DNA from: Phycisphaera mikurensis NBRC 102666
GTDB lineage: Bacteria; Planctomycetota; Phycisphaerae; Phycisphaerales; Phycisphaeraceae
NCBI RefSeq assembly: GCF_000284115.1
Contig: NC_017080.1
Location: forward strand, 60,001-92,000
Reading direction: 5' to 3'
Length of the DNA stretch: 32,000 nucleotides
The position numbers were made by a program, and so were the translations under genes. Below are positions 3,375-27,482 of the stretch, one piece after another. Below the pieces are notes generated by a model. The model was not told the DNA's origin. It saw only the letters and a list, made by a program, of their open reading frames with translations, and made no database searches. Every line of letters starts with the position of its first letter. Position 1 is the first letter of the stretch.

Positions 3375-3798
3375 CCCGGGCCGCTATGACTCGACGGTTC
3401 GAACGCCGGTCGCTGCCGCTTCTCTCGGATCCAAGCTTCATCAGGCGTACTCCCATCGCTTCGGTGATCGCCTTCGAAGCGTCATCCAAGGCTGCGCCCC
3501 GAAAGCTACGATAGCTAGAAATCTTCTGGGGTGTTTCCGACCTTGCGGGTACCCCAGAATGACCGGTTGACACCTGACAAAGCTCATGAAAGGATGATCG
3601 GGACTCTGAGTTCGCCACGGTGAGGGACAAGAGCGGGAGCTGGACACCGATTTCTCATGAGCGTTGTCAGCCGGTGCGTGACCGGAGGAAACATCGCACC
3701 GGCAGATCGGACGCTTGGGCCGGTAGCCGAGGGGGCTGCGGGCGGAAGGGAAGGCACACCCGCTCTTTGCACACTGGCACGGCTCAGATCTTCGCTTG

Positions 3799-4330: not shown

Positions 4331-4421
4331 ACGTGCTCCCCAAGGAGCGGGATCGTGATCGCCTCAAGCCCCCGGCGGCGATGCCCGAGAAGCCGAAGCG
4401 GCAAGCCGGCGGCCCTGGCGC

Positions 4422-5999: not shown

Positions 6000-6075
6000 G
6001 CATCCACCCGCGCGGCCCTTAGACTCCTCGGCTCCCTTGCCTCTTGCCGGCGGCACCCGCTGACTTCCGCCTCCG

Positions 6076-6927: not shown

Positions 6928-6942
6928 AGGGGGAAATCCAGC

Positions 6943-11900: not shown

Positions 11901-11903
11901 GAC

Positions 11904-12515
11904 TCACGCCTCCCGGGGTGTCGCGGGTGCCCGAAGCGCCCGATCGTGGCCGGCTCCACGCTCCAGCGTGACCGCCTCCCGGCCGGGCCGCTTCTTCAGC
12001 GGCCTGCACGGGGAGCCAACGTACACCGTCCAGGGCTCGAGGCTGCGGAAAGCTCCTCCGCGGGCTCCCAGAATCGCGCCTTCGCCGATCGTCACGCCGG
12101 GACCCACGAAGGCATCGGTGGCCACCCAGGCGTCGTCACCGATCTCGATCGGAGGGCGAAGCATCGGCATGGAGGCCGGCCGGGTGTAGTCGTGACTGCC
12201 GGCGCACAGCTTGCAGAAGTGGCTCAGCGTCACGCGCTTGCCCACCGTCACCGGGCCGAGGCAGTAGAACCAGACCTCTTCTCCCGTGGCCGTGTCATCG
12301 CCCACCGAGAGGTTCCAAGGGCACATGAAGCGGCATGTGCGGCGGATCTTCGTTGTTGGATGCACGTCCGCGCCGAAGCAGCGCAGCAGGAAGGCACGCC
12401 AGCGGTACCAAGTCGGCCAAGTCAGCCGGAAGAGAGTCGCCTCCACCAGAGCCCATAGCATGCGTCTTGCCTTCTCACGGAAGGTGAAGGGGCTTCGGTG
12501 TCGGTCCGCTTCCAT
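11904..12515 (-). CDS. Left-handed beta-helix (hexapeptide) acetyltransferase, WcaF-like
   Basis: The start is taken at ATG 12515-12513 (MEADRHRSPFTFREKARRMLWALVEATLFRL…). The hexapeptide region is IEIGDDAWVATDAFVGPGVTIGEGAILGARG. It aligns with the paralog at 14764..15321. The upstream 108 codons of track ORF 11904..12839 overlap the divergent pyruvyl transferase gene. Confidence 0.85.
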   Translation of the reverse strand: MEADRHRSPFTFREKARRMLWALVEATLFRLTWPTWYRWRAFLLRCFGADVHPTTKIRRTCRFMCPWNLSVGDDTATGEEVWFYCLGPVTVGKRVTLSHFCKLCAGSHDYTRPASMPMLRPPIEIGDDAWVATDAFVGPGVTIGEGAILGARGGAFRSLEPWTVYVGSPCRPLKKRPGREAVTLERGAGHDRALRAPATPREA

Positions 12516-12596
12516 ATTGATGCACGCATTCTCTAGCCTGACCGCCCCGTGAGCTTCGCGGGAGATCAGCGCCGCCCCTCTCAACGCAGACGCGAC

Positions 12597-13568
12597 ATGC
12601 CACGATACGGACTCCTCACCTACGAAACCGCCAATCTCGGGGATGACGTGCAGAGCCTTGCGGCTCGTCAATACCTCCCTCGGGTCGACGAGCTGGTGAA
12701 TCGTGACGCACTTGGCCGCAGCGCCGAAGGTGATCCGCTGACGATGATTATGAACGGCTGGTGGCTCCAGAATCACGCCGACTGGCCGCCGCCCGAGCGG
12801 ATCTCCCCGCTCTACGTCGCCTTCCATGCCGCCAAACATGCGCGGAAGTCACTGACCTCCGAGGCCTCGCTCAACCACCTGCGGGCCCATGCGCCAGTCG
12901 GGTGCCGCGATCAGAAGACCCTGGAGCTGCTAGAGGGCTGCGGCGTCGAGGCATACAAGTCCGCTTGCCTGACCCTGACGCTGCGCCGGCCCGACCCGGG
13001 TGCATCACGCCGTGGGACCGTCTTCTGCGATCCCTTCGGTCACGACGTGAAGTACCGGTTCCATCGGAAGGGAGAGGCGAAGTACGAAGCCTGGCTGAAG
13101 CAGCTGGGGCGTGGTCGGAACTTCGACGACGCGACGCACCTCACCAACGAGATCGATCCCACGATGCCCGCCGAGCGTCGCTACGCGCTCGCGGAGGAGC
13201 ACCTCGCTCGCTTCGCCAACGCGGAGCTGGTGGTGACCTGCCGGATCCACTGCGCCCTGCCCTGCCTCGCATTCGGAACACCGGTGCTCTTCCTGATCCC
13301 GCGTCGTGGAAGCGACATGTTCCTCGGGGGCCTCGTCGGATGGCTGCGTTGGCGGCTGAGAGGGAACGCCCTCTCAGACAAACGTTTCCCGGGCCTGGTC
13401 GACCTGATGCACCACCGCCGGCTCCAAGACGTCGAGTCTGGCACGGCGGCTCCGTTCGACTTCGACCAGCCCCCCGCCAACCCCGTGCCGATCGAGCCCA
13501 TCGCCGGCCCCTTGCGGGAGCGGTGCGAAGCCTTCATCGCGGCCGCCGAAGCATCCTCGGAGGCCTGA
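12597..13568 (+). CDS. Polysaccharide pyruvyl transferase family protein
   Basis: [41 protein letters not shown] and [22 protein letters not shown] match the CsaB/WcaK-type pyruvyl transferase motif pattern. The ATG at 12597 is preferred over the GTG at 12549. Confidence 0.8.
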
Positions 13569-13570
13569 CG

Positions 13571-14728
13571 GTGGACCGCCCCCTCCGGCTCGTCCACGCT
13601 GTGCCCTCGTGGTGTCACAGCGCCTATCGAGCAACAGGCGTCTCGCGAGCCGCCTGGGATCTCGCCGACGCCCTCGCCGAGGCGGGGCACCACGTTGACG
13701 TCGTCTGCCCGGAGGTGGATCTCGCAGAACGCTTCGTGCCGCCGGCGGAGCGGGTCTTCCGGGATGGACGCCTCAAGGTCCACACGGTTCCGGAGGCCCG
13801 CACCACCCGTTTCGGGACCGGCCGGAACGGCTTGGATGCGGTGGCGACTCCGCTCATCCAGCAGGCCGACCTTGTGCACGTACACGCCTTCTTCAGCCCG
13901 TGGAGCGACCGGGCGGCGCGGCTTGCCCAATCCACGCGGACGCCTTACGTCGTCCAGCCCCACGGGAAGCTCTCGCCCTCGATGCTCGCCTCTCAGCGGC
14001 GTGCCAAGGCGGTCTACCTCGGCCTCTACGGAAAACGCCTGCTCACGCGGGCCTCTGCGGTGATCGTTCTCGCGGAGGGCATTGCGGACTCCGTGCACCG
14101 CTGGCTTCCCGAGGCCCGTCTGGAGGTCTGCCCAAACGGGTTGAGCCCCGAGGAATACGCCGAGCCGCCAGCCGATCGGCCTACGAATCATCCCTATCTC
14201 CTCTATCTGGGCCTGATCGACCCACGCAAGCGAATCGATCTTTTGTTGGAGGCGATGCCGACGGTCCTTGCGCAGCGGCCGGGGTTGCGCCTGGCCTTGG
14301 TGGGCGGGGACCGGTATGGGCACCTGCCGGACCTGCAGCCACAAATTGATGCGCTGGGCGATGCCGTTCTGCTCCCTGGCCACGTCTCCGGTGAGACGAA
14401 GCTCCAGTGGCTCCACCACGCGGAGGCATTTGCGCTCGCCTCGGACGGCGAGGGCCTGAGCCTGTCCATGCTCGAGGCCCTCGCCTGCGGCCTGCCCTGC
14501 CTGCTCAGCCCCGGGTGCAACGCGCCGGAAGTTGAAGAAGCGGGTGCGGGGGAGACCGTCGCTTCAACGCCTTCGGCCTGGGCGGACGCCTTGATCCGCT
14601 GGAGCGACCGGTCGCAGCGCCACCGAGACGCCGGTCGCGCCGCCCAGCGGCTCTTCCAGGAGCGCTTCACGCTTCGAGCGGTTTCCGAACGCATGACCTG
14701 CATCTACAAAGATGTGCTCGCCCGGTGA
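13571..14728 (+). CDS. Glycosyltransferase family 4 (GT-B)
   Basis: The GTG at 13571 lies 2 nt after the upstream stop and gives (M)DRPLRLVHAVPSW… The EX7E motif EGLSLSMLE is followed by ALACGLPCLLS. The N-terminal part of track ORF 12761..14728 is an off-frame overlap. Confidence 0.9.
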   Translation: MDRPLRLVHAVPSWCHSAYRATGVSRAAWDLADALAEAGHHVDVVCPEVDLAERFVPPAERVFRDGRLKVHTVPEARTTRFGTGRNGLDAVATPLIQQADLVHVHAFFSPWSDRAARLAQSTRTPYVVQPHGKLSPSMLASQRRAKAVYLGLYGKRLLTRASAVIVLAEGIADSVHRWLPEARLEVCPNGLSPEEYAEPPADRPTNHPYLLYLGLIDPRKRIDLLLEAMPTVLAQRPGLRLALVGGDRYGHLPDLQPQIDALGDAVLLPGHVSGETKLQWLHHAEAFALASDGEGLSLSMLEALACGLPCLLSPGCNAPEVEEAGAGETVASTPSAWADALIRWSDRSQRHRDAGRAAQRLFQERFTLRAVSERMTCIYKDVLAR

Positions 14729-14763
14729 ACGACGCCGCGACCTCTGGTCAACCTCTTCACGCG

Positions 14764-15321
14764 ATGGACAAGACCTTCTTCCGGCTAGAGCGAAGCCCCG
14801 CGACACCCGCCGGACGCAAGGCCGTGATCCTGAGGGTCGTGTGGGCCGCCGTTGAACGGACGCTGTTCCGCCTGCCGCTTCCCCGCTGGTTGCGGCTCCG
14901 ACGCCGGCTGCTGCGCCTCTTCGGCGCTTCCTTCGACGGGCACTGCTCCTCCAGAATCCGGGTGTGGTACCCCTGGAAGCTACGGATGGGCCGCCTCTCG
15001 ATGGCGGGCGATCGGGTGACCTTCTACAACCTCGCGCCCATCACCATCGGAGACTCCACCGTCCTGTCCCAAGACGCGTACCTGTGCGCCGGCACGCATG
15101 ACCACCTCGACCCCACCTTCCCGCTGGTGGCGGACCACCGCGCGGCCATCCGCATCGGGAATGGAGTCTGGGTGGCCGCAGGCGCCTTTGTGGGGCCGGG
15201 CGTGACCATCGGCGACAACGCCGTGGTGGCGGCCCGCAGCGTGGTGGTGAAGGACGTGCCGGCCGGGGCCATCGTCGGCGGGAACCCGACACGGATCATC
15301 GGACACCGGCCCGCGGGCTAG
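14764..15321 (+). CDS. Left-handed beta-helix (hexapeptide) acetyltransferase, WcaF-like (paralog of 11904..12515)
   Basis: MDKTFFRLERSPATPAGRKAVILRVVWAAVERTLFRL… aligns with the N-terminus of the other LbH enzyme. The hexapeptide region is IRIGNGVWVAAGAFVGPGVTIGDNAVVAARS. GC3 rises only after 14764. An alternative GTG at 14725 overlaps the GT4 stop (GTGA). Confidence 0.85.
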   Translation: MDKTFFRLERSPATPAGRKAVILRVVWAAVERTLFRLPLPRWLRLRRRLLRLFGASFDGHCSSRIRVWYPWKLRMGRLSMAGDRVTFYNLAPITIGDSTVLSQDAYLCAGTHDHLDPTFPLVADHRAAIRIGNGVWVAAGAFVGPGVTIGDNAVVAARSVVVKDVPAGAIVGGNPTRIIGHRPAG

Positions 15322-16274
15322 GAATCCGCGCCGGCGGTGGCATCGTCGGGCGGTGGCGAGGTGCCCTCGCCGTCTGCGAGCGCCCGAGCGTGCAGCAGGA
15401 TCATCTGCTCGTAGACGCGCAGCATAGATGCGTACGTCCAGCCGGCGCGGCCGTCGAAGACGCCGCGTTGCAGCACCAGCACGATGAGCCATCGAAGCGT
15501 CGGCCGCGCCGGCAGCCGCTGAAACAGCGACTTCACGGCGCGACGCCGGCGGACCCCATCGCTTGACAGCAGCGCAGCCAAGCCCGCGGCCTCGCCTTCC
15601 ACCGCCCGGCGTGCCTGCTCCGCCTCCCGCCGCGCGTACCCGTTGTGCTTCGCGAGCCACGCCTCCATGCCCTTGGCGAAGGCGTGGTGCAGATACGGCT
15701 CGCCGAGCCTCCCGATGCGGCCGCCGGGACGCTCCCGTTGCCCGTGCCCATGGTCGATGAAGCGCATGCGGTCGGCGTGGAAGAACCGCATCTGGAACAC
15801 CGGGTACCCGCCCGCATACCGCAGCCATTGCCTGTGGAGCATCAGCTTGTGGGCGACGTGCAGACCGTCAACTGTATCCGCATCGGGCGACGCGACGAAG
15901 CGACGTATCTCCTCGACGAGCGCGGGCGTGAACTCTTCGTCCGCATCGAGGTGGAAGACCCACTTGTGTCGCGGCTCCGCATGGTCTATCGCCCAATTGC
16001 GTTGCCGGCCAAACGATTCAAACGGATTCGTAAACACGCGTGCTCCCGTGGCTTCCGCGAGCGAGCGCGTTTCGTCGGTGGAGCCCGAATCGACAACGGC
16101 CACGTCGTCGCACCAGCGGCAGCTTGCCAGCGCCGCGGGAAGCGTCCCCGCCTCGTTGTGTGTCAGAAGGACCACCGACACCGGCACCACGCCCCGGTCG
16201 GGGTAGGTCCCCGCGGAGGAGTCGGGTGCCAGGGGCCTATGGAGCGACACGAGGGTCAGGATAATGACCGACAC
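15318..16274 (-). CDS. Glycosyltransferase family 2 (GT-A)
   Basis: VSVVLLTHNEAGTLPAALAS…VVDSGSTDET…FHLDADE carries the DxD-type motif. There is a C-terminal amphipathic/helical tail. The likely true start is a GTG at 16190 or 16187, giving (M)VPVSVVLL, rather than the GTG at 16274. Confidence 0.85.
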   Translation of the reverse strand: MSVIILTLVSLHRPLAPDSSAGTYPDRGVVPVSVVLLTHNEAGTLPAALASCRWCDDVAVVDSGSTDETRSLAEATGARVFTNPFESFGRQRNWAIDHAEPRHKWVFHLDADEEFTPALVEEIRRFVASPDADTVDGLHVAHKLMLHRQWLRYAGGYPVFQMRFFHADRMRFIDHGHGQRERPGGRIGRLGEPYLHHAFAKGMEAWLAKHNGYARREAEQARRAVEGEAAGLAALLSSDGVRRRRAVKSLFQRLPARPTLRWLIVLVLQRGVFDGRAGWTYASMLRVYEQMILLHARALADGEGTSPPPDDATAGADS

Positions 16275-16351
16275 GCGGTGTCACCGATCTGCCGGAGCGT
16301 TGATCGCCGGTCCTCGGGCGCCGGCACTCCGGCACGCGATAGCCTCCTGGC

Positions 16352-17203
16352 GTGCCCGCTGTCCGCCTGCCGATCTCCATCCTGATCCTCGTGAAGGACG
16401 AGGAGGAGCACCTACCGCTGCTGCTGGAGACTCTCGGCGGATTCGAAGACATCGTGGTGCTCGACTCGATGAGCACCGATGGGACAATTGAGATCGCCGA
16501 GGCCGCCGGATGCAGGGTGGTCCGCCGCCAGTTCGACACGTGGGCGGAGCACCAGAATTGGGCGATGGAGAACATCGAGTTTCGCCACCGGTGGGTCTTC
16601 TACCTCGACGCGGACGAGCGGATGACTGACGCCGTCCGCGGCGAGATTCATCAGATCGCGGCGTCCCCGCAGGAGCCGCCGCCGCACCGGGCGTACTACG
16701 TCGGGCGGGACAACCGCCTCTTCGGCCGCTCGCTCCGGCACGCCATGGGTGGCGGCGTGGTGATGCGCTTCTTCCAACCCGCGCACATCCGCTTTGCGCG
16801 GCGTGTGAACCCGCAGCCTGTTCTTGAGGGGGAGCCCGGCTACCTGCGGAGTCGCTTCATCCATCACCACTTTGCGCGTGGCTTCGCCCAGTGGTTCGAG
16901 AAGCACAACCGCTACGCGGGCTGGGAAGCGCAGGAGTGGATCGAGGCGGTGGACGCAACGCCGCTGCGGTGGAAGCCGCTTTTTGCACGCGACCGGAACA
17001 CGCGGCTACAGGCGATCAAGCGAGCGTCCTTCCACCTGCCCTTCCGCCCGCTGCTCAAGTTTCTGCACATGTACCTCTGGCGGCGAGGCTTCCTTGACGG
17101 AAGCCCGGGCTTCCACTGCTGCGTGCTGATGAGTATTTTTGAGTACATGATCGGGCTCCGGGTCAAGGAGATGCGACGCCGCAGCGCAGGAAAGCCGGTC
17201 TGA
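16352..17203 (+). CDS. Glycosyltransferase family 2 (GT-A), paralog of 15318..16274, divergently transcribed
   Basis: MPAVRLPISILILVKDEEEHLP…VLDSMSTDGT…FYLDADE. The C-terminal half is co-linear with the neighbour (…FAKGMEAWLAKHNGYARREA… versus …FARGFAQWFEKHNRYAGWEA…). Confidence 0.85.
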   Translation: MPAVRLPISILILVKDEEEHLPLLLETLGGFEDIVVLDSMSTDGTIEIAEAAGCRVVRRQFDTWAEHQNWAMENIEFRHRWVFYLDADERMTDAVRGEIHQIAASPQEPPPHRAYYVGRDNRLFGRSLRHAMGGGVVMRFFQPAHIRFARRVNPQPVLEGEPGYLRSRFIHHHFARGFAQWFEKHNRYAGWEAQEWIEAVDATPLRWKPLFARDRNTRLQAIKRASFHLPFRPLLKFLHMYLWRRGFLDGSPGFHCCVLMSIFEYMIGLRVKEMRRRSAGKPV

Positions 17204-17216
17204 CAGAGCGTTGCCG

Positions 17217-18899
17217 TCAGTCGAATGACGATCGCTCCAACGACAGACCTTCCCTCATAAGTCTGAGTGTCTCCAGCCGCCACGCGCTCTTGGGAGACCA
17301 CGACTCGTGCCCCCAGATCGCAACAGCGTCCGCTTCCTCAAGAGCGACTTCGAGTTGCAGGCGCCAGAAGTCGGTGCTGGCGCCTTTCGCGGTCCAGAGG
17401 AAGGCGATGACGGGCTTGCCAGCCTCCTTCGCCTCGTCCAGCATCGCTCGCGCTCGCGACACCCACAGTTCGTGGGTCGGCCTCGCACCAGCTCCCGTGT
17501 CCCACGCGTAGATCGCCGGGAAAATAAGGTCCACCGCGTCCACGAGCCGCTGTGCCTCGCGGTTGAGTTGCTGCTGCGCGGCGAACATGCCCGGATTGGA
17601 AGGTTCGGGATACCGCCTCGCCTGCACGTAAGTGTATTGCGGGAAGATGCCCCAGTAACCGAGGCGGACACCGGGACGTTCCTCGCGGAAGATCTCTAAG
17701 AGGCGAATCAGCCGATCGATCGCGCTAGTGCGTGCTGCACTGTCTTCCGTCAAGACGGGCCAGTGCTCTACATCGAGGCAGTACATCTTCGCCTCGGGAA
17801 GTCGGCGGATGCGTTCGCGTATCTCCGACTCCGGCGGCAAGGTGTCCCAATAACCCGCTTGGCCGCGACGGAAGCCGAGGTGTCCCGGGTAGATGACGTG
17901 GAGTCGCCTCACCGGCAATCCTTCCCAGTCCACTGGCTCATCGAACGCGGTCGCGTCGAAGATCCGATCCGCCCAAGCGGCTGAGTCTGCGGCCTTCGGT
18001 GTCAGGTCAGGATCAACCGCGGAGCTGATCGCATCCGGCGCGGAATCCTGAACCGGAGCGGCGCTCGCCGATCCTGCCGCAGGGAGATGAACCAGCGCCA
18101 CCTCTTCGGATCCGTTGCTCTGCATCGCGGCACCGGCGATGCGTGCTCCCGCGGCTCCCTCCGCCGAACGCTCCGGGTTCGGAAGAGGCACATCGTCTCC
18201 AGCGCCCGCTGTCGATGGTGCCGAACGGGGTCTTGAGCTCGGAGCAGGAGTCGGCAAAGCGCTCAGACCTCCGGACGAGGCATCGCCCGCCGCAGTTCCG
18301 CCACCGGTTGGTGCGGGCTGAGAGACTTGCGTGCCCGGGAGCAGCGCTCCCCTCAACGCACGGGGGGGAGATTGGACCGCTTTCGAAGATCTGCCCGCCA
18401 GCGACGGCGGGGCGTTCCAACGCGGCAAGGCGACGGAGGACCCGGCCACCAACTCCGCTGTGTCGATAGAAGCGAGATTGGGGCGGATCCGATCGAGAGA
18501 AGGAGGCGCCGGCAGCGGGCTCTCCGTTTCCGGCGAGGATTCGCGATCGGGCTCGACGGACGTCCGGACCCGGGGCACCGCGCGAACGTCCGATGCCCCA
18601 TCGGAGCTCTTCGTGGCTCGGGCCTTCGCAAACGGCCGCACCTCTTGCGTCGGGACGAGGGCGGGGACACGGAAGGCGGAGGGGGTGCCCGCCTCCGCTC
18701 GGGCAGAAGCTGGCGGGTGGAACCAGAGCGTCAAGCTGGCGCTGCTGCCCAGCGCGAAGGCCGTGAAGAGACAGACTGCGACATGGTGGTTCACGAGGAC
18801 ACTCCCGACGGCGAACCCTTCGCCATCGGCTCCGCCCGGCGCTCGCTCAAGGTGCATCGAGCGAACACGGCCGGCCTCATTCGGCGCTGTCAGCGTCAC
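17217..18899 (-). CDS. Membrane-anchored protein with a long Ser/Pro/Ala-rich linker and a C-terminal GH56 (hyaluronidase)-like domain
   Basis: There is a signal anchor (VAVCLFTAFALGSSASLTLWF) and a roughly 230-aa low-complexity linker. The C-terminal domain of about 250 aa carries, in order, CLDVEHWP, RLGYWGIFPQ, DLIFPAIY, KPVIAFLW and ADAVAIWGHE. The start is either the GTG at 18899 or the ATG at 18857. Confidence 0.72.
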   Translation of the reverse strand: MTLTAPNEAGRVRSMHLERAPGGADGEGFAVGSVLVNHHVAVCLFTAFALGSSASLTLWFHPPASARAEAGTPSAFRVPALVPTQEVRPFAKARATKSSDGASDVRAVPRVRTSVEPDRESSPETESPLPAPPSLDRIRPNLASIDTAELVAGSSVALPRWNAPPSLAGRSSKAVQSPPRALRGALLPGTQVSQPAPTGGGTAAGDASSGGLSALPTPAPSSRPRSAPSTAGAGDDVPLPNPERSAEGAAGARIAGAAMQSNGSEEVALVHLPAAGSASAAPVQDSAPDAISSAVDPDLTPKAADSAAWADRIFDATAFDEPVDWEGLPVRRLHVIYPGHLGFRRGQAGYWDTLPPESEIRERIRRLPEAKMYCLDVEHWPVLTEDSAARTSAIDRLIRLLEIFREERPGVRLGYWGIFPQYTYVQARRYPEPSNPGMFAAQQQLNREAQRLVDAVDLIFPAIYAWDTGAGARPTHELWVSRARAMLDEAKEAGKPVIAFLWTAKGASTDFWRLQLEVALEEADAVAIWGHESWSPKSAWRLETLRLMREGLSLERSSFD

Positions 18900-18933: not shown

Positions 18934-19737
18934 TCAGTGATTCATCCAGGCTGCGGACCAGCCCCGAGACGCTTCTACAATTGCGTCCGCAGACGCGACC
19001 GGCAACGGCTCCGGCGCGAACACGATGACCCCTTCGAAGGCAGGCCACAACTCGGCGATCTCCCACGCCCAAGCTTCATCGGGAACAGGTCGGCCAGCCA
19101 GCTCGCCCCATTGCTTCGCTTGAGGGTGAAGCCAAGCCCACGTCACGAGATAAACCGGCTTGTCGAAGTTCGATTTCGCGATCCGCAACTGCTCAAGAAC
19201 GGCTCTGGCATGTGCATCTCGATCCGGCGTTAACGCATAGCCGTAGACGGAGGTGAAATCACACCAACCTTCCAGGCCGTCGTCACCCCGCCTCAACGCC
19301 AGCCAGTGCCGGACTTGCTCGGCGTCGGGACCCTCCGGCTCGCTCCAAGCAAACTCGCGGTAGAGCGACTCAGCCGCCGTGTAGAAGACGCCGATCCGCC
19401 GATCGGGACCGATCCGGCGGAGCGCCGGAAGCACCTCCCGCCAGTCCTTCGCTTCACCCCGCTCTTTGTTGTAGAACAAAGGCCCGGGAGGCAGATCCAA
19501 CATGCCCCGCTGACGCAGCCAGGCGTTTCCGCCGAAGCGGAAGCCCCGGTGCGGATCGAGCACGAGGTGGTCAGGAATCCAGACCATCGGGCGGGCGACC
19601 TCGGCGAGCGCGCGGTCCAGAGGCGGCGCTCCCGGCGGGGCCGCGATGTACACCAGAGGTCCGTCGGGCAACCCCGCCGCGGAAGCGGCACCTCCGCTGT
19701 CGAGCGACGACAACATGACCACGCAACCCCACAGCAT
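18934..19737 (-). CDS. Shorter paralog of the C-terminal domain of 17217..18899, with signature residues substituted
   Basis: By-eye co-linearity is FYNKERGE / RIGVFYTAA / CDFTSVYGY / KPVYLVTWAW / FEGVIVFAPE. The start is taken at ATG 19737 (MLWGCVVMLSSL…). The upstream part of track ORF 18934..19896 overlaps well-coding sequence of the divergent gene and has poor protein character. An alternative ATG is at 19716. Confidence 0.6.
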   Translation of the reverse strand: MLWGCVVMLSSLDSGGAASAAGLPDGPLVYIAAPPGAPPLDRALAEVARPMVWIPDHLVLDPHRGFRFGGNAWLRQRGMLDLPPGPLFYNKERGEAKDWREVLPALRRIGPDRRIGVFYTAAESLYREFAWSEPEGPDAEQVRHWLALRRGDDGLEGWCDFTSVYGYALTPDRDAHARAVLEQLRIAKSNFDKPVYLVTWAWLHPQAKQWGELAGRPVPDEAWAWEIAELWPAFEGVIVFAPEPLPVASADAIVEASRGWSAAWMNH

Positions 19738-21220
19738 CAGCCGCAGCTCACCCCCAACCGAGCGACACCGCCCGCTGAAGAACCAAGCTCGCGTGCTGTT
19801 GCGTCTCGCTCTGGTGCTCTTCATCGTCATTGCGGTCCTGCTTCTCGTGCAACGAGGGTTTCTGCGGGGTCTCGATCGTTCACTCGACCTCACCATGATC
19901 TATGCGGCGGCCAAGGCATGGCTCACGGGCCGCGATCCATACGCTTTTGCGCCCCTGTACGACCTGTATCTCGCTTCCGGAGGAACCGACAAGGCCCGCG
20001 ACGCCGATCAGTTCACCAGCCTCTACCCACCCACAACCTACGCGCTGCTCTCCCCCTTGGGACTGCTCTCTTGGCCAGCGGCGAAAGCCGCTTGGCTCGC
20101 CTTCAACGGCTTACTCATCGGGTTCTGCGTCGCCGCCATGCTCCTGTTGCGGGCCCCAGGACTCCGCAGAGGTTCTTCCCTGCAGCTCGGTCTTTTGGGG
20201 GTGACGCTGGTCTGGGCACCACTCCACACGGCTCTCTCGCTCGGCCAGCTCTCCGTCGCATGCACGGCGGCGGTTCTCCCGATTGCGGTCTTCGCGGGCA
20301 GGAAGCCCGGCACCGCCGTTGCGGTCATGGCAGGGAGCGCGTTGGGCGCGGCGGGCGCCTTGAAGCCTCAACTCCTATTCTTGTTGGGTCCTGCGATTTT
20401 GCTGACTCGATGGCGTGCCGCAGGTCCGATCGCAATTGTTGCGGCTTCGGTCGTTGCAGCGGTGGCGATCGTCCGGGTTTCAGGCAGTGCCCCGAACTGG
20501 TGGGACACTTGGATGCAGAACGTTGAAGCATTCACCAGCAGCAGCATCGGTCGTCCGGATCCTGCCAATCCGCAATTCCATGAGATGATGCACCTCGAAA
20601 CCATCGTCGGTTTGGTTTTGCCCGCCGCGGAAGGATCTTGGCGCACCCTCATCGCGACGGTGCTACCCGTCGGAATCTTCGTGCTCGCCGGGTCGGTGCT
20701 GCTGGTCCGTCACCGCCTGCAACCGCTTCCTGCCGAGGACGCTCGAGCTTGGCTGGCTCTCTCCGCCGTTCTTACGGTTCTCACCGGCTATCACCGCTCT
20801 TACGATGCAACGCTGTTGCTGGTCGCCCTTGTTGCATTGGCGGCGCGTGCGGCGGCGAGGCCGTCCTCCATCGTGACTTGGCTGATGGGCTTCGCGGCGG
20901 CGGCGTTTCTCGTACCCGCTCCGTCCGTCTTCGTCGCGATGACAAGACGAGGCCTGCTTCCTCCCGCTTTAGCCGAGGAGCCGCTGTGGCAGGCCACGGC
21001 GCTTCAAGCCCATAGCTGGGCGGCTCTCGCCTGGGCAGCATTGATACTTCGGGACCTCCTCAGCCCGCCTCAATGGAAAAGCAAGCCTGGGCGTGATGAT
21101 TCCCTAATGGTCGATCGCGATCCTGATGGACTGCTCCCCGAGTCAAGTCCTGGTGGTTCTCCATTGGGTCGCCTAACGCGTGGCGCGCCAGGCAGCCGGG
21201 AACGTCGGCGGCCTCGTTGA
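19715..21220 (+). CDS. GT-C fold glycosyltransferase, GT87/DUF2029-like (paralog 2 of 3)
   Basis: LDLTMIYAAAKAWLTGRDPYAFAPLYDLY…SLYPPTTYALLSPLGLLSWPAAKAAW… and GALKPQLLFLLGPAILLTRWR are co-linear with paralog 3. The start is taken at ATG 19715. The last roughly 55 codons (about 21060-21220) have poor GC3, so the native C-terminus is doubtful. Confidence 0.8.
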   Translation: MTTQPHSISRSSPPTERHRPLKNQARVLLRLALVLFIVIAVLLLVQRGFLRGLDRSLDLTMIYAAAKAWLTGRDPYAFAPLYDLYLASGGTDKARDADQFTSLYPPTTYALLSPLGLLSWPAAKAAWLAFNGLLIGFCVAAMLLLRAPGLRRGSSLQLGLLGVTLVWAPLHTALSLGQLSVACTAAVLPIAVFAGRKPGTAVAVMAGSALGAAGALKPQLLFLLGPAILLTRWRAAGPIAIVAASVVAAVAIVRVSGSAPNWWDTWMQNVEAFTSSSIGRPDPANPQFHEMMHLETIVGLVLPAAEGSWRTLIATVLPVGIFVLAGSVLLVRHRLQPLPAEDARAWLALSAVLTVLTGYHRSYDATLLLVALVALAARAAARPSSIVTWLMGFAAAAFLVPAPSVFVAMTRRGLLPPALAEEPLWQATALQAHSWAALAWAALILRDLLSPPQWKSKPGRDDSLMVDRDPDGLLPESSPGGSPLGRLTRGAPGSRERRRPR

Positions 21221-21426: not shown

Positions 21427-21717
21427 ATGATGCATTCGACCGTCACCGGGAGGGGGCAGACCACCCTGCCCGCCGCTCTGCGGGCGCGGCTGGGCTTGAA
21501 GGCGGGCGACCGGATCGTCTATGAGGAACGCGACGGCGACGTGGTGCTGCGGGTGCACCCGGGGGTGCGGGCGGTGGCCGGGATGCTCCACGCGGAGCTT
21601 GTGCGGCGCTCCGACGGCGATTTTGAAGCGGAGCGAGAGGCGGCGCACGAGGCCTGGGGGCGTGACGGAGCCGGCGAGGCAGGCGGCGGCGACGGTGCGA
21701 GCGGCGGTGGCCGCTGA
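21427..21717 (+). CDS. vapB: AbrB/SpoVT-type antitoxin (VapB-like)
   Basis: MMHSTVTGRGQTTLPAALRARLGLKAGDRIVYEERDGDVVLRV is a typical looped-hinge-helix (SpoVT-AbrB) DNA-binding domain. Its stop overlaps the toxin ATG (TGATG at 21715-21719). Confidence 0.8.
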   Translation: MMHSTVTGRGQTTLPAALRARLGLKAGDRIVYEERDGDVVLRVHPGVRAVAGMLHAELVRRSDGDFEAEREAAHEAWGRDGAGEAGGGDGASGGGR

Positions 21718-22163
21718 TGCCCCCGCCGCGGCCGGAACCGGGATCACCGACCGCGGAGAGGTGGTGGATCGACACGAACGTGGTGGTCCGCCTGGTGACG
21801 GGGGACCCGCCGGTGATGGCAGAGCAGGCCGCCGCCTTCCTGGAAGAGAGCACCCGCTCCGGTCGGCCGCTGCGGCTGGACCCGCTGGTGGTGGCGGAGG
21901 CGCTGTACGTGCTCACGTCCTTCTACGGGCTGCCGCGGGCGGGGGCGGTGGAGGCGCTTCTGGCGGTGGTGGGGCTCCCGGGGCTGCGCGTGGAGCAGCG
22001 GGCCGCGGTGCTCCGGGCGCTGGAGCTGCACCGGGCCACGCCGAAGCTCCACTTCGTGGACGCGTGGCTGACGGCGCGGGCCGAAGCCGCCGGGGACGGC
22101 ATGGTCACCTTCGACGCGGGCATGGCCATAGCGGCGGGGGTGCCGGCGCTGCGTCCAAGGTGA
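21717..22163 (+). CDS. vapC: PIN-domain toxin (VapC-like ribonuclease)
   Basis: WWIDTNVVVRL…PLVVAEALYVL…LHFVDAWLTA…MVTFDAG carries the four acidic PIN positions (D, E, D, D) in the canonical order. Confidence 0.85.
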   Translation: MPPPRPEPGSPTAERWWIDTNVVVRLVTGDPPVMAEQAAAFLEESTRSGRPLRLDPLVVAEALYVLTSFYGLPRAGAVEALLAVVGLPGLRVEQRAAVLRALELHRATPKLHFVDAWLTARAEAAGDGMVTFDAGMAIAAGVPALRPR

Positions 22164-22178
22164 ACGACGTCGGTGCAA

Positions 22179-22481
22179 TCACGCTCGGAACACGGCCGCG
22201 GAGTCCAGGCTCCGGGCGGCCGCGGCGAGCTTCTTGTCGGGCGTGGCCGGGGCGACACCGTGCCGATCCGCTACGTCCAGCCAAGCCGCGTCGTACGCGA
22301 AGAGCCCGAAGCGGCGTGACAGCGCCACGACGCCGACGCACGCGGAGGAGGGTTTCATCCGGAGAGGCAAGTCGCCCGGGCCGGCGAGGAGCACATCGGT
22401 GAAGACGGGTTCGACCCGACCCCGGGGCTCATCCGCCAGCAGGACGTTGCGGACCCCGTACCAGATGATCCATGGCTTCAA
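22179..22481 (-). pseudogene. PIN-domain (VapC-like) toxin lacking its N-terminal strand and first acidic residue; probably frameshifted
   Basis: The ORF starts at a TTG directly after an in-frame TGA and gives (M)KPWIIWYGVRNVLL…FAYDAAWLDVADRHGVAPATPDKKLAAAA, the C-terminal two thirds of a PIN domain. The expected N-terminus (MQPVIAVEA…) is encoded in the antitoxin frame, 1 nt out of register. Confidence 0.55.
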
Positions 22482-22761
22482 CCGCGATCACCGGCTGCAT
22501 CCGCCCCTCGTCCCGCCAGAACTGTGCCTCGGCGCGGGTGGTTCCTTTGACCCCGCCCCGGGAGGCGAGCAAAGTCTCGACCGCGGACTCCACCCGTTCT
22601 CGCTGGCACGACTTGTCGGGGATCAGGCGTGCCACCACCTCGCCGCGGCGGGTGATCGCGAAGGCTTCTCCCTTCGCGACACGCTCCAGGAGGTTTGAAA
22701 GTTGCGCTTCTGCCTCACGAGACCCGGTCTCTTCTTCGGTGCTGGGTGCTTGCTGCTTCAT
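22429..22761 (-). CDS. Phd/YefM-type antitoxin with an abnormal C-terminal extension
   Basis: MKQQAPSTEEETGSREAEAQLSNLLERVAKGEAFAITRRGEVVARLIPDKS… is the Phd/YefM N-terminal fold signature. After …FWRDEGR the frame continues 24 codons (MQPVIAVEAMDHLVRGPQRPAGG) into what looks like the toxin start. The upstream 254 codons of track ORF 22429..23523 are Pro/Arg-rich off-frame sequence. Confidence 0.65.
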   Translation of the reverse strand: MKQQAPSTEEETGSREAEAQLSNLLERVAKGEAFAITRRGEVVARLIPDKSCQRERVESAVETLLASRGGVKGTTRAEAQFWRDEGRMQPVIAVEAMDHLVRGPQRPAGG

Positions 22762-23480: not shown

Positions 23481-24060
23481 GGGGCGGGGTCGCCTTCGCG
23501 AGGGTCGTGTGGTCCCTCGGCATCGAACAGCGACACGTCGGCGCGGTACTGAAAGCGGCGGCTGCGCTTCTGCCCGGTGATCTCCTCCAGGATGCGGAGC
23601 TCCTCGAACTCGGCGACCGGGTTCTTCGCCGCGGCGTACTCGAGCCCGGTCACCTCCCGCACGTGCCGGACCGAGACGATCGGCTGGCGGAACGGCGACT
23701 CGATCACGCGGTGCCCGTGCGCCGCCGGGCGGCCCAGCGCGGAGGTGAGCCGGTCGCGATCGCGCTCCCGGAGCGTCAGATGGACGCTTCCGCGGAAAGA
23801 GCGTCCCGCAGCGAGCTCTGCGTCCCCTCGATCTGGCTGGAGAGCACGGCCTCCTTCCGCACGTGCATGAAGACGAGGAAATCGGGGTGGGGCAGCGTCG
23901 TGATCGATCCGTCGAGGCGACCCGGAGCATGGTCGGCCACCGAGAGACGCTCCTGGAGCCGGCCGGAGAGCCAGGCCGGCGGGAGGCAGGGCGCAGGGCA
24001 GAAAGGCCCGGTGCCCGCCGCTCTGGGGGACGCACCGGCCCGCCCGGGTGGCGTTCTGCT
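23477..24060 (-). pseudogene. Fic/DOC-family gene remnant: the Fic_N segment and the C-terminal winged-helix segment lie in different frames and the catalytic core is absent
   Basis: The frame of ORF 23776..24093 reads …GRLDGSITTLPHPDFLVFMHVRKEAVLSSQIEGTQSSLRDAL, a Fic_N signature. The frame of ORF 23477..24097 reads …FRQPIVSVRHVREVTGLEYAAAKNPVAEFEELRILEEITGQKRSRRFQY, the Fic C-terminal wHTH signature. No HPFxxGNGR motif occurs in any frame between them, and the whole locus is only about 0.6 kb. Confidence 0.6.
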
Positions 24061-24181: not shown

Positions 24182-25180
24182 TCACCGCGCCGCCCACGCC
24201 GCGGCGAGCGTCGCCGCGCCTAGGGCCCAGGTCACCGGGTCGCGGACGAGGAAGGTGAGCGGGTCGCCGTGGATGCGGCCGCGGTGGGCGAGGAACCAGA
24301 GGCGGTTGAGGCCGAACAGCACGAGGCCGACGACGATGGCGAGGCGGCGGGGGTGGGCGTAGAGGGCCCGGACGGCGTCGCTGGAGAGGTAGAGGGTGAG
24401 CACGACGCCGGCGGACCAGGCGCTCGCGACGCCCATGGCGAGTACCAGCGGGGCGTCGGACGGTTGCCAACCTCGGCCGGGAACGGCCTCGGCAGATGTC
24501 CCGGGAGAATGCTCGCGCACGGCGGATCCGAAGAGCGTGAGCAGCTCGGCGTAGCGCTTGCCCAGGGCGAGGGTGAGGAAGACGGCCCCGGCGAAGCCGA
24601 GCAGCCAGGGGCTCGGGAAGAGGCCGACCACGAAGCCGCCGGCGAGCAGGCGGGCGAGGTAGAAGCCCGAGAGGCAGGCGACGTCGACGATGGGTTCGCG
24701 TTTCAGGCGGAGGCTGTAGGCGAAGGCGAGCGTGGCGTAGCCGAGCAGCGTGGCGGCGAAGCCGGCGGGGCTGGGGGCGGTGGCGCCGGGGGCGGCGGCA
24801 ACCGGCGGGTCGACCAGAAAGAGCGCGGCGGTGAGGGCGGCGGCGAGGAGGAGCAGGCCGGGGACGGCGGCTTTGGCGACGCCGGGCCGGAGGCGGCCGG
24901 AGGCGATCGGCCGCTCCCGCTTGGTGGGGTGGAGGCGGTCGGCGTCGGCGTCGAGCAGGTCGTTGACCAGGTAGACGACGCTGGCGACGGCGCTGAACGC
25001 CGCGGCGGCGAGGGCGACGGCGAGCCAGCGGGTGCCGTCGCCGGCGGCGTGGCCGGCGAGCATCGGCACGGCGACCAGCAGGTTTTTGGGCCACTGCCGC
25101 GGGCGGCAGGCGGCGAGGAGCGCCGCCCCCCGTGCCGCTCGAGCCGCAACGCCGGTCGGGTTCGAGGGGGAAGCAGCCAA
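24182..25180 (-). CDS. UbiA-family prenyl-phosphate phosphoribosyltransferase (decaprenyl-phosphate 5-phosphoribosyltransferase-like)
   Basis: The C-terminal 332 codons of track ORF 24182..26515 read …RPRQWPKNLLVAVPMLAGH…VVYLVNDLLDADADRLHPTKRERPIASGRL… The NDxxD and HPTKRxRPIA motifs match the Rv3806c-type enzymes, with about 8-9 TM segments. The start is assigned to the TTG at 25180-25178 (uncertain). The upstream part of the track ORF is antisense to the divergent gene. Confidence 0.85.
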   Translation of the reverse strand: MAASPSNPTGVAARAARGAALLAACRPRQWPKNLLVAVPMLAGHAAGDGTRWLAVALAAAAFSAVASVVYLVNDLLDADADRLHPTKRERPIASGRLRPGVAKAAVPGLLLLAAALTAALFLVDPPVAAAPGATAPSPAGFAATLLGYATLAFAYSLRLKREPIVDVACLSGFYLARLLAGGFVVGLFPSPWLLGFAGAVFLTLALGKRYAELLTLFGSAVREHSPGTSAEAVPGRGWQPSDAPLVLAMGVASAWSAGVVLTLYLSSDAVRALYAHPRRLAIVVGLVLFGLNRLWFLAHRGRIHGDPLTFLVRDPVTWALGAATLAAAWAAR

Positions 25181-25264
25181 GGGAATCCGCGGACCGTGGG
25201 CGATTCGGGCCGTTTCCGTCGACGGTCCGCGGCGCGGGAGCGCCGTGTCGGTCAAGCTACCCCC

Positions 25265-26593
25265 GTGGAGCCCCGACGCCCCCCGGAAACGAAGCGGCCA
25301 CGCGGGCTCGTCGGGTTCGCGTGGGCGGTGCTGGCGGTCGCGGGGATCCTGCTGCTCGTGCGTGGCGTGCTGCCGGGGCTGGCGTTCTCGGGCGACTTCA
25401 CGATGATCCACGCGGGGGCGAGCGTGTGGCTCGACGGCGGGAACCCCTACGACTTCGACACGCTCTACAACGGCTGGAAGGCCGACGGTGGCGGGAGCGA
25501 GCGGCCGCGGGAGGAGCGCTGGTTCGTCGCGCTGTACCCGCCCACGACCTACGCGGCGCTGGCCCCGGTCGGGGCGCTGGGCTGGCCGGCGGGGCGTGCG
25601 GCGTGGGTGCTGCTTTCGGGGCTGTCGGTGGCGGGGGTGGCGGCCTGGGGGGCGGCGTGGCTGCGCCGGAACCCAACGCACCCCCCAAGGGGCGTGGCAC
25701 CCGAGCGTGCGAGGCCGTGGCTCGTGCTGCTGCTGGCGGCGTGGCTGTCGGCGGGGCCGGTCGCGACGACGCTGGAGTTCGGGCAGCTGGGGCTGGTGGT
25801 GCTGGCGCTGGTGGCGCTCGCGGTGGGCACGCCCGGCTGGCGGCCGCCGGCCTGGGCGGCGGGGGCGGCGCTGGCGGGGGCGGGCTGCGTCAAGCCGCAG
25901 CTCGCGGGGGTGTTCGCGCTCGGCTTCGTGGCGCTGGGCCGCTGGCGGGAGCTGGCGTGGACGCTGGGCGTGGGTTCCGCGATCGCGGCGGTGGCGGTGC
26001 TGCGGCTGGAGGCGGCGGGGGTGGCGTGGGCGACCGGGCTGCTCGACAACGTGCGCCGCTTCGCGGGCACGGGCTTCGCCGATCCGTCGCCGGCGAACCG
26101 GGTGGCCTGGCAGATGGTGAACCTCGAGCCGCTGTGGCGGCGCTTCTTCAGCGGGGGGGCGCCCGTCGGCGTGGCGGCGGTGTGGGCCGTGGCCGCCGCG
26201 GGGGTGGCGTGGCGGGTGCGGAAGCGGGCCGGGCCCGCGGGCGGCTTCACGCTGTGGGTGATGTCGGTGGCGTCGGTGGTGACGCTGCTGATCGCCTACC
26301 ACCGCGCGTACGACGCGGTGCTGCTGGCGGTGCCGGCGGTGTGGGCGGTGCGGGGCCTGCTCGCGGGCGGGCGGCTGGCCCCCGCGGCGGTGCTGGTGGG
26401 CGTCGCGTTCTTCTGGCCGCCGGTGCCGGAGCTGCTGAACCACCTGGCCTTCCGCGGGTGGCTGCCGCGGTCGCAGCGCTGGCCGTTCGTGTTGGAGACG
26501 GCGGTGATGTTCCACCGGCCGGGGGTGCTGGTGGGGGTGCTGGGGGTGCTGCTGGGGGTCCGTTCGCGACCGGGCGATGGTCGGACACGCTGA
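25265..26593 (+). CDS. GT-C fold glycosyltransferase, GT87/DUF2029-like (paralog 3 of 3)
   Basis: The GTG at 25265 gives (M)EPRRPPETKRPRGLVGFAWAVLAVAGILLLV…GDFTMIHAGASVWLDGGNPYDFDTLY…ALYPPTTYAALAPVGALGWPAGRAAW…GCVKPQLAGVFALGFVALGRWR. This is co-linear with paralog 2. The first 332 codons of track ORF 24269..26593 are antisense to the UbiA gene. Confidence 0.8.
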   Translation: MEPRRPPETKRPRGLVGFAWAVLAVAGILLLVRGVLPGLAFSGDFTMIHAGASVWLDGGNPYDFDTLYNGWKADGGGSERPREERWFVALYPPTTYAALAPVGALGWPAGRAAWVLLSGLSVAGVAAWGAAWLRRNPTHPPRGVAPERARPWLVLLLAAWLSAGPVATTLEFGQLGLVVLALVALAVGTPGWRPPAWAAGAALAGAGCVKPQLAGVFALGFVALGRWRELAWTLGVGSAIAAVAVLRLEAAGVAWATGLLDNVRRFAGTGFADPSPANRVAWQMVNLEPLWRRFFSGGAPVGVAAVWAVAAAGVAWRVRKRAGPAGGFTLWVMSVASVVTLLIAYHRAYDAVLLAVPAVWAVRGLLAGGRLAPAAVLVGVAFFWPPVPELLNHLAFRGWLPRSQRWPFVLETAVMFHRPGVLVGVLGVLLGVRSRPGDGRTR

Positions 26594-26762: not shown

Positions 26763-27422
26763 TCAGGCGGCGGGGATCATGCCGCGATCGGTCAAGAGGG
26801 CGATCAGCCGCTCGACGGCCTCGGGCAGGGGCGTGGTGTCGGTGTCGAGGCGGAGGTCGGGGTTTCGCGGCTCCTCGTAGGGGTCGTCGATGCCGGTGAA
26901 GCCCTGGATCTCGCCGGCGCGGGCCTTCTTGTAGAGGCCCTTGGGGTCGCGGGCCTCGGCGACGGAGAGCGGGACGGCGACGTGCACCTCGGCGTAGGGC
27001 ACGCCCGCTCCGCGGTGGAGGGCCGCGACGCGGTCGCGGTCCCTCGCGTAGGGCGAGACGAAGCTGGCGAGGCAGACCAGGCCCGCCTCGGCCTGGAGCT
27101 TCGCGACCTCGCCGATGCGGCGGATGTTCTCGGCGCGGTCCTCGGCGGAGAAGCCCAGGTTCGAGCAGAGCCCCATGCGGACGTTGTCGCCGTCGAGCCG
27201 GGCGGCGTGCCGGCCGCGTGCGACCAGCGCCTTCTCCAGGGCGACGGCGACGGTGGACTTGCCCGAGCCCGAGAGCCCGGTGAACCAGACGGTGCCGCCC
27301 CGCTGCCCGAGGCTGGCCGCCCGCTCCTGGGCCGTCACCTCGCCGGCGTGGAAGGTGAGGTTCCCGCCGCCGCCGGTCTCCACGCCGGCGGCCGGGGCGT
27401 CGGGCTCGTGCTTGTCGCTCAT
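26763..27422 (-). CDS. cysC: Adenylyl-sulfate (APS) kinase
   Basis: VWFTGLSGSGKSTVA is the P-loop. LDGDNVR, NLGFSAEDRAENIRRIGEVAKL, FVSPY and ARAGEIQGFTGIDDPYE follow the canonical CysC motif order. Confidence 0.95.
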   Translation of the reverse strand: MSDKHEPDAPAAGVETGGGGNLTFHAGEVTAQERAASLGQRGGTVWFTGLSGSGKSTVAVALEKALVARGRHAARLDGDNVRMGLCSNLGFSAEDRAENIRRIGEVAKLQAEAGLVCLASFVSPYARDRDRVAALHRGAGVPYAEVHVAVPLSVAEARDPKGLYKKARAGEIQGFTGIDDPYEEPRNPDLRLDTDTTPLPEAVERLIALLTDRGMIPAA

Positions 27423-27482
27423 GGGGCCGTTGTCGGCGATCCGATGCGGTTTGGCAACCCGGCGGCCCGTTGCCGCTTATCA

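Follow-up and report, generated by a model that had tools for sequence, protein, structure and literature searches.

What would a planctomycete do with a UbiA-family enzyme encoded back to back with a membrane glycosyltransferase? This question is raised by a 32-kb stretch of the chromosome of the marine species Phycisphaera mikurensis (class Phycisphaerae, 3.8-Mb genome), called the window below, in which a UbiA-family gene and a GT87 gene of the GT-C type are divergently transcribed. The analysis described here indicated that the divergent pair and a methyltransferase gene downstream of UbiA probably constitute a planctomycete form of the pathway for periplasmic pentofuranose glycosylation, which would use a ribofuranose-type sugar. 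An initial annotation of this DNA had proposed that a lipid-linked pentofuranose donor decorates an envelope glycan; this idea is supported as far as computation goes, both the donor sugar and the acceptor being predictions.

Genes were called from the GC content at third codon positions (GC3) and annotated with Pfam over the whole window (Table 1). The spacing between the two divergent genes, put at about 85 bp in the initial annotation, was 84 bp in our own calls and in the NCBI calls for the same genome, which also gave identical lengths for both genes. The two gene products are 100% identical to P. mikurensis proteins that NCBI names 'UbiA family prenyltransferase' and 'glycosyltransferase 87 family protein' (the latter referred to as the focal GT87). 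A promoter scan of the 84-bp gap retrieved no sigma-70-like consensus, promoter and terminator scans not being telling at 75% GC.

The UbiA-family protein is predicted to use phosphoribosyl pyrophosphate

Sequence and fold comparisons indicated that the UbiA gene product is probably a polyprenyl-phosphate 5-phosphoribosyltransferase (PPPRS/DPPRS-like) and not a quinone or heme prenyltransferase. The motifs QWPKNLLV and NDLLDADADRLHPTKRERPIASG, pointed out in the initial annotation, were present in the protein, which matched the Pfam UbiA family (PF01040) with 52 bits (cut-off 34.2). The best NCBIfam model was NF006088/PRK08238, a HAD+UbiA fusion of 482 positions (282.5 bits, only profile positions 186-479 being matched). 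Three decaprenyl-phosphate phosphoribosyltransferase models scored 93-131 bits (130.8 for the DPPR synthase model NF008978), and models of generic prenyltransferases, heme O synthase and UbiA gave 32 bits or less. When all PDB sequences were searched with phmmer, Mycobacterium tuberculosis Rv3806c (8j8j) was the sole significant match (E 5.8e-23; next match, E 0.41). An AlphaFold (AF2) model built from 36 homologues (predicted local distance difference test score, pLDDT, 92.1; predicted template modelling score, pTM, 0.88) was compared with known structures using Foldseek. The top match was again 8j8j (TM-scores 0.73/0.82, E 2.8e-9; 28% identity over the fold alignment), archaeal UbiA and DGGGP synthase reaching 0.59-0.62.

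The phosphoribosyl pyrophosphate (PRPP) site of Rv3806c has been described (PMC10994848). Mg2+ is liganded by N73 and D77, the 5'-phosphate by K28, Y70 and Y157, and the pyrophosphate by R22, K87, R90 and K143; Y138, Q135 (a ribose-O3 ligand) and K208 (a further pyrophosphate ligand) contribute too. These residues were mapped to the P. mikurensis protein via its phmmer alignment with 8j8j, and 10 of the 12 were identical (R22, K28, Y70, N73, D77, K87, R90, Y138, K143 and Y157). The equivalents are K32, Y70 and Y174 in the 5'-phosphate site and R26, K87, R90 and K160 in the pyrophosphate K/R cluster. All four residues of the NDxxDxxxD motif (N73, D74, D77 and D81) are present and invariant in the 36 relatives, across which the conserved PRPP-site residues as a whole are invariant or nearly so. 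The grouping with phosphoribosyltransferases, on which the initial annotation depended, is borne out by the profile scores, by the sequence and fold matches to Rv3806c and by these residues. Among the sequence evidence, the kept 5'-phosphate pocket argues most strongly for PRPP as the donor of this enzyme.

One related locus (L004, 9142..14682, + strand) contains a NAD-epimerase, a HAD-less UbiA, a 587-aa polytopic protein, an FGE-sulfatase-like protein and a ribose-phosphate pyrophosphokinase (PRPP synthetase). A PRPP synthetase encoded within this operon speaks for PRPP as the donor in this clade. The pair made of the 587-aa polytopic and FGE-like proteins was seen again in L011, L072 and L078.

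UbiA and GT87 genes are paired in related genomes

The divergent UbiA/GT87 arrangement is kept in four other loci (L001, L007, L008 and L091), in which the GT87 proteins are 46-73% identical to the focal GT87 and the surrounding genes differ each time. In L001, the UbiA protein is 84% identical to that of the window. It is fused to a HAD domain in L091 (GT87 51% identical) and in L007 and L008 (46-47%). The protein pairs P0005/P0124 and P0006/P0123, each coming from contigs of equal length, suggest two further instances of the divergent pair. Beyond this clade, a metagenome-assembled genome (MAG) of the Planctomycetaceae (L032, 1371..5050, + strand) carries HAD-UbiA, Methyltransf_23 and GT87 genes as three tightly packed genes on the same strand, and GT87, HAD-UbiA and SMR-like genes are found together in Paraburkholderia ginsengisoli (L027). 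The co-occurrence of both families in related genomes, which the initial annotation proposed as a check, holds in the four divergent loci and also in L032.

Since the divergent pair is conserved in diverged relatives, the UbiA-GT87 linkage is real and not due to chance, and it is specific to subclades, not general to GT87. The GT87 proteins of L032 and L027 are only remotely related to the focal GT87, and GT87 enzymes were therefore recruited beside this type of synthase at least three separate times. A clade-specific GT87 hidden Markov model, also when iterated, missed the divergent GT87 proteins of L032 and L027, both of which were found by Pfam, and its negatives at distant loci are weak.

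The profile matches of the GT87 orthologue of L001 (8307..9767, - strand) are spread over at least two reading frames, and the corresponding protein P0126 covers only 55% of the query. This multi-frame match reflects either a frameshift due to an assembly error or a decaying copy. The ratio of nonsynonymous to synonymous substitutions (dN/dS) calculated for GT87 against L001 is unreliable, the L001 gene appearing to be split over frames.

The locus resembles published pentofuranose systems

Kelly et al. (2024; PMC11127046) showed biochemically that ORF15 of Citrobacter youngae makes polyprenyl-P-ribofuranose from PRPP. In ORF15, a HAD 'PRP' phosphatase at the N terminus is followed by a UbiA/DPPRS-like domain at the C terminus. 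Next come a MATE flippase and a GT-C enzyme (the founder of GT136), through which the O antigen receives alpha-ribofuranose (Ribf) in the periplasm. The sugar can be diversified by epimerases, ORF13 leading to xylofuranose (Xylf) and DprE1/E2 to arabinofuranose (Araf). The same authors call such "three-component" pentofuranose systems widespread; their main text and supplement contain no mention of GT87, DUF2029 or Planctomycetes.

Similarly to the ORF15-ORF14-ORF12 genes of C. youngae O1/O2, a UbiA-type polyprenyl-phosphate phosphoribosyltransferase adjoins a GT-C enzyme in the window. The nearest homologues of the window UbiA have the same HAD(PRP)-UbiA architecture as ORF15, and both systems have optional auxiliary enzymes beside the synthase, an epimerase in C. 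youngae and a methyltransferase dependent on S-adenosylmethionine (SAM) here. Unlike the C. youngae system, the window encodes a GT87 instead of a GT136 enzyme, the HAD/PRP domain has been lost and the locus contains no MATE/SMR flippase; the host is a planctomycete without known glycan structure.

The mycobacterial decaprenyl-phospho-arabinose pathway (Rv3806c, Rv3807c, DprE1/DprE2, Rv3789, Aft/Emb) offers a second comparison. Its synthase shares the fold and active-site residues of the window UbiA, is likewise a stand-alone protein lacking HAD, and provides a lipid-linked pentofuranose that is consumed by GT-C enzymes. In contrast, DprE1/DprE2, a PAP2 phosphatase and a GtrA/SMR flippase are absent from the window.

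Collectively, these comparisons suggest that the pair belongs to an already published concept, periplasmic pentofuranose glycosylation via a PRPP-derived polyprenyl-P donor. The variant is distinct by its GT87 transferase, its conserved methyltransferase, the secondary loss of the fused phosphatase, the lack of a flippase in cis and its planctomycete host. The published pathway logic, the HAD loss in Phycisphaera, the methyltransferase partner and the restriction of the synthase linkage to this GT87 subclade all go beyond the initial annotation.

The transferred sugar is most likely of the ribofuranose type

The absence of DprE1/DprE2 and of a phosphatase from the window had been noted in the initial annotation, which left open the choice between Ribf and Araf. 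Both of our searches agree with this. A phmmer search of the window with queries from related loci gave no homologue of the DprE1-like, SDR, NAD-epimerase or HAD type; the DprE1-like and SDR queries detected 45 and 21, respectively, of 80 other UbiA loci. These 80 genome loci of the nearest UbiA relatives, P. mikurensis itself not among them, are those to which all counts out of 80 refer. Pfam analysis of the genes called in the window gave no DprE1/DprE2-like, phosphatase, PAP2 or GtrA/SMR match.

The same pathway could transfer D-arabinofuranose if DprE1/DprE2-type epimerases were encoded elsewhere in the genome, as in mycobacteria and in Pseudomonas aeruginosa pilin glycosylation. A gene for a DprE1-like FAD (flavin adenine dinucleotide) oxidoreductase lies within 10 kb of UbiA in 45 of the 80 loci, often together with an SDR gene, and these include a Planctomycetaceae MAG. 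We nevertheless consider an Araf product unlikely. Where epimerases are used they usually cluster with the synthase, and there is no DprE1-like or SDR gene in the flanks of the six GT87-linked loci (window, L001, L007, L008, L091 and L032); the 3 kb past the right end of the window contain no epimerase gene either. Because none of the GT87-linked flanks contains an epimerase gene, ribofuranose, either as such or methylated, is the most likely sugar to be transferred, and not arabinofuranose; this is an argument from local absence only.

The MAG in question (L045, 9311..14439, + strand) encodes in a row HAD-UbiA, a DprE1-like protein, an SDR and a 457-aa polytopic protein that matches no Pfam family. 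It would correspond to an arabinofuranose-type system of the same phylum that operates without GT87.

The focal GT87 is predicted to share the fold of PimE

The focal GT87 matched Pfam PF09594 with 66.7 bits (cut-off 25), and neither sequence nor profile searches retrieved a match among PDB chains. Its AF2 model (pLDDT 75.4, pTM 0.79) gave PimE (9dm5) as the top Foldseek match (TM-scores 0.63/0.71, E 1e-4, probability 1.00), followed by PIGU. The same pattern of structural relatives was reported for PimE itself in the paper describing its structure. The catalytic base of PimE is D58, which sits at the tip of its first juxtamembrane helix, and phosphate is bound by K195 and H322. Residue D44 of the focal GT87 lies just past the first transmembrane (TM) segment, at the start of helix 43-56, and is shared by all aligned members of the clade that span this part; K210 belongs to an invariant KPQ motif. 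We infer from their positions, not from a residue-level alignment to PimE, that D44 and K210 may correspond to D58 and K195.

Two further GT87 genes had been listed as paralogues in the initial annotation. Both encode GT87 proteins according to Pfam. The 501-aa protein, with 34% identity to the focal GT87 (E 5e-36), is its true paralogue and a possible second user of a lipid-linked donor; the 418-aa protein is related to the focal GT87 only at the family level. AftC, a mycobacterial Araf transferase, is usually placed in GT87, a point in favour of the Araf product; MtxT (Rv0541c) is placed there as well.

PimE and MptC/Rv2181 share Pfam GT87 membership and the PimE-like fold with the focal GT87. 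They differ in that they belong to actinobacteria and that the donor predicted for the focal GT87 is a polyprenyl-P-pentofuranose, not polyprenyl-P-mannose. This difference is central to a reading in which UbiA and GT87 do not work together as donor synthase and transferase. The GT87 substrate would then be, like that of PimE, a polyprenyl-P-hexose (for example polyprenyl-P-mannose) made elsewhere, the UbiA product would serve another GT-C enzyme or another purpose, and the two genes would be neighbours only through co-regulation or co-inheritance. The characterised GT87 enzymes with text evidence, PimE and MptC, indeed depend on polyprenyl-P-mannose. Furthermore, in a subclade formed by L006 and L092 (GT87 41-45% identical) the methyltransferase and GT87 genes are still neighbours but the available flanking DNA contains no UbiA gene, and none lies near the genes of 29 remoter GT87 relatives (25-34% identical) from metagenomes. 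Against this, the divergent pairing persists in loci whose GT87 proteins are only 46% identical and whose other genes differ, and the two remotely related GT87 lineages of L032 and L027 were independently recruited beside HAD-UbiA. No GtrB/Ppm1-like synthase is found nearby either. Since the two GT2 proteins of the window have no TM segments, UbiA is the only recognisable polyprenyl-P-sugar synthase near the three GT-C genes. Separate roles for UbiA and GT87 are in our view quite improbable.

Like the GT87 loci devoid of UbiA and the mannose donors of PimE and MptC, several other observations weigh against the proposed pentofuranose pathway. Few UbiA loci have a GT87 gene as neighbour (2 of the 80). 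PMT_2-type and unclassified polytopic proteins dominate instead, the polytopic neighbours comprising PMT_2 (12), LPG_synthase_TM (9), Wzy_C (5), DUF7024 (4) and many proteins without a Pfam match. The UbiA protein scored below the curated NCBIfam cut-offs (282.5 versus 351 for NF006088 and 130.8 versus 207 for NF008978). For NF006088, the restricted match is explained by the missing HAD part. In the PRPP site, Q135 and K208 of Rv3806c are replaced by A152 and E223, the latter in a poorly aligned loop in which R222 adjoins. The methyltransferase has no specific family assignment, its top matches being generic, weak and below cut-off (DVU_1556 family, MetW, UbiG). Finally, the window contains no phosphatase, flippase or epimerase for the pathway.

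Phycisphaera UbiA proteins lost a fused phosphatase domain

The window UbiA is closely related to a tight Phycisphaera-like group of HAD-less proteins (P0002-P0006; 285-345 aa, 75-84% identity). Outside this group, the nearest homologues are HAD+UbiA fusions of about 480 aa (40-45% identity), and the HAD domain is fused to UbiA in all but about 6 of the 80 loci. The Phycisphaera proteins start some 20 residues ahead of the RPRQW motif and miss the N-terminal HAD domain of about 190 aa. In a neighbour-joining tree, the HAD-less Phycisphaera group was sister to HAD-fused proteins of Planctomycetota (L007, L008) and nested within the HAD-fused clade. The short DPPRS-like sequences fell outside this clade, and the window UbiA did not branch with them. 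Because of this nested position, and because the sister-clade proteins keep intact HAD motifs (DLDGT, LATG, GDSxxD), we conclude that the Phycisphaera proteins lost their phosphatase domain secondarily. No HAD domain was detected in the UbiA protein, and NCBIfam and phmmer searches gave no HAD match anywhere in the window. A search for a stand-alone HAD/PRP phosphatase with the HAD domain of L007 returned two unrelated metagenome proteins without recovering the query's own protein, and is uninformative for P. mikurensis.

Is the shortened gene still functional? With intact active-site residues, several HAD-less orthologues and a dN/dS of 0.36 against L001, it looks functional and not decaying. 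Values of dN/dS were 0.36-0.57 overall; they are inflated, dS being compressed by a GC3 of about 0.94. A decaying, non-functional truncation that leaves the module inactive in P. mikurensis would fit the disappearance of a domain that the sister clade keeps intact, dN/dS values that are not very low and the pseudogene next door. This neighbour is a Fic-family remnant: in tblastn searches with the intact 354-aa Fic protein of L001 (11267..12331), the segments recovered from the window correspond to residues 2-61 and 262-349 alone and lie in different frames. The middle part, which holds the catalytic region, is missing, and NCBI calls a 54-aa Fic_N fragment at this position. Decay of UbiA is nonetheless very improbable, given that 10 of the 12 PRPP-site residues are kept, that the same HAD-less form occurs on at least five related contigs and that other HAD-less clades exist, Rv3806c included. 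In addition, a phosphatase-dead D18A variant of ORF15 still gave some Ribf addition in vivo (PMC11127046). The Phycisphaera module would represent a natural experiment on the dispensability of the fused 5-phosphatase.

A SAM-dependent methyltransferase is a conserved neighbour

The methyltransferase encoded downstream of UbiA is a conserved third member of the module. Orthologues 55-84% identical adjoin GT87 or UbiA in L001, L006, L007, L091 and L092 (phmmer E 5e-113 for L001, 2e-75 for L006 and 3e-64 for L007), and they were adjacent in all six clade loci reaching far enough (6/6). The Methyltransf_23 protein located between HAD-UbiA and GT87 in L032 is only remotely related to it. As the GT87 protein of this locus is equally remote, the L032 trio was assembled independently.

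The methyltransferase sequence has no TM segment and no signal-like N-terminus, and the enzyme is therefore expected to be cytoplasmic. By analogy with the donor-diversifying epimerases of published systems, it may methylate the lipid-linked pentose, a reasonable but unproven role. The mycobacterial methylthioxylose capping system (MtxS Rv0539/MtxT Rv0541c) provides a precedent for a methyl-bearing pentofuranose decoration: a GT-C enzyme takes the modified sugar, a pentofuranose, from its polyprenyl-P carrier and attaches it to a surface glycan. The donor of this system derives from 5'-methylthioadenosine via a GT2-type synthase, whereas the window pathway would start from PRPP via the UbiA enzyme.

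A quinone-like pathway of aromatic prenylation and O-methylation, with GT87 unrelated, was rejected: UbiG (E 3e-4) is among the weak top PDB/NCBIfam matches of the methyltransferase but the match spans only the generic SAM-binding region, and UbiA scored 282/131 bits with phosphoribosyltransferase models against 32 or less with the others and keeps the 5'-phosphate residues specific to Rv3806c.

Proposed pathway

According to the ribofuranose pathway that we favour, the UbiA enzyme would first make a lipid-carried ribose-type sugar from PRPP, as its homology and conserved active-site residues suggest. The 5-phosphate would then be removed by a phosphatase acting in trans or would be kept, since Phycisphaera lost the fused HAD domain used by its nearest relatives. 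Speculatively, the cytoplasmic methyltransferase could modify the lipid-linked sugar or the acceptor precursor. The donor would be flipped across the membrane by a putative flippase, and the focal GT87 would transfer the pentofuranose to an envelope glycan, a role consistent with its fold, its family and its conserved gene linkage. The acceptor could be the product of the adjacent Wzx/Wzy polysaccharide locus.

A more specific version of this pathway combines three features: a GT87 pentofuranosyltransferase, which would be the first outside actinobacteria; a methyltransferase replacing the epimerase, leading to O-methyl-ribofuranose; and, in Phycisphaera, transfer of an anionic ribose-5-phosphate, made possible by the loss of the fused phosphatase. 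That all three hold jointly is possible but doubtful.

Envelope glycans of planctomycetes are almost uncharacterised, and the module predicts a ribofuranose-type, possibly methylated decoration derived from PRPP via a lipid carrier. With it, the "three-component" paradigm of 2024 would reach a new phylum and take in both another GT-C family (GT87) and a novel type of accessory enzyme, the methyltransferase. Since published work already covers the general concept and expects it to be widespread, the module is a useful lead for the specialist and no surprise.

Candidate acceptor locus and genomic neighbourhood

The Wzx/Wzy-type polysaccharide locus is a candidate acceptor pathway. According to Pfam, it encodes a Polysacc_synt_3 flippase, a sulfotransferase, a Wzy-like protein, two GT4s, SGNH-like and MBOAT proteins, two hexapeptide acyltransferases, a pyruvyl transferase and two GT2s. 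A cluster of GT2, hexapeptide and GT4 genes abuts the module in the window, L006 and L092 and does not in L001, L007 and L008. A literature search on the sugar composition of P. mikurensis returned nothing relevant. No dedicated MATE or SMR/GtrA-type flippase was found near the UbiA/GT87 pair within the window; SMR-like genes occur in other UbiA loci (L005, L027).

Table 1 Features of the 32-kb window
Feature	Position	Strand	Remarks
UbiA-family gene, 332 aa	24182..25180	-	Most plausible start TTG at 25180; end 24182
GT87 GT-C gene (focal), 442 aa	25265..26593	+	Start GTG at 25265; end 26593
Divergent intergenic region, 84 bp	25181..25264	.	Between UbiA and GT87 starts; presumed bidirectional promoter region
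Class I SAM-dependent methyltransferase, 207 aa	22857..23480	-	Pfam Methyltransf_23/11/25; downstream of UbiA, same strand
Fic-family pseudogene remnant, non-functional	23510..23958	-	Between UbiA and methyltransferase; tblastn
GT87 paralogue, 501 aa	19715..21220	+	Pfam GT87 50.6 bits; edge of polysaccharide locus
Distant GT87 family member, 418 aa	2118..3374	-	Pfam GT87 68.8 bits
Wzx/Wzy-type polysaccharide locus	4422..17203	.	Pfam
Wzx-like gene	4422..5999		Only MOP-family protein found; 18 kb from UbiA/GT87 pair
Sulfotransferase	6091..6927	+	In polysaccharide locus
MazE/PrlF antitoxin + PIN toxin	21427..22163	+	
PhdYeFM-like antitoxin + 100-aa partner	22179..22761	-	
APS kinase (CysC, 219.6 bits)	26763..27440	-	Immediately downstream of focal GT87; DUF4159, VKOR, YebC genes next

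The adenosine 5'-phosphosulfate (APS) kinase and the sulfotransferase together point to a sulfated polysaccharide. Since the APS kinase does not adjoin the module in L001, it is probably not a member. The toxin-antitoxin genes (21427..22761) stand between the polysaccharide locus and the UbiA/GT87/methyltransferase module. The base composition changes abruptly near position 21000: the GC content is 0.61-0.70 in the polysaccharide locus and 0.74-0.78 in the flanking DNA, which includes the module. This step suggests that the locus was horizontally acquired or is under different constraints. About 1 kb separating the 418-aa GT87 gene from the Wzx-like gene (3375..4421) contains no open reading frame (ORF) supported by GC3 and has a lower GC content (~0.62), and could serve the polysaccharide locus as a long leader or regulatory region. 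Two ORFs in the polysaccharide locus (17217..18899 and 18934..19896, both - strand) have no Pfam/NCBIfam match, and their proteins, compared as possible paralogues (17217..17963 and 18934..19749), showed no detectable mutual similarity. A further ORF (964..1719, - strand, 251 aa) with no family match has a good coding signal and about 3-4 hydrophobic segments.

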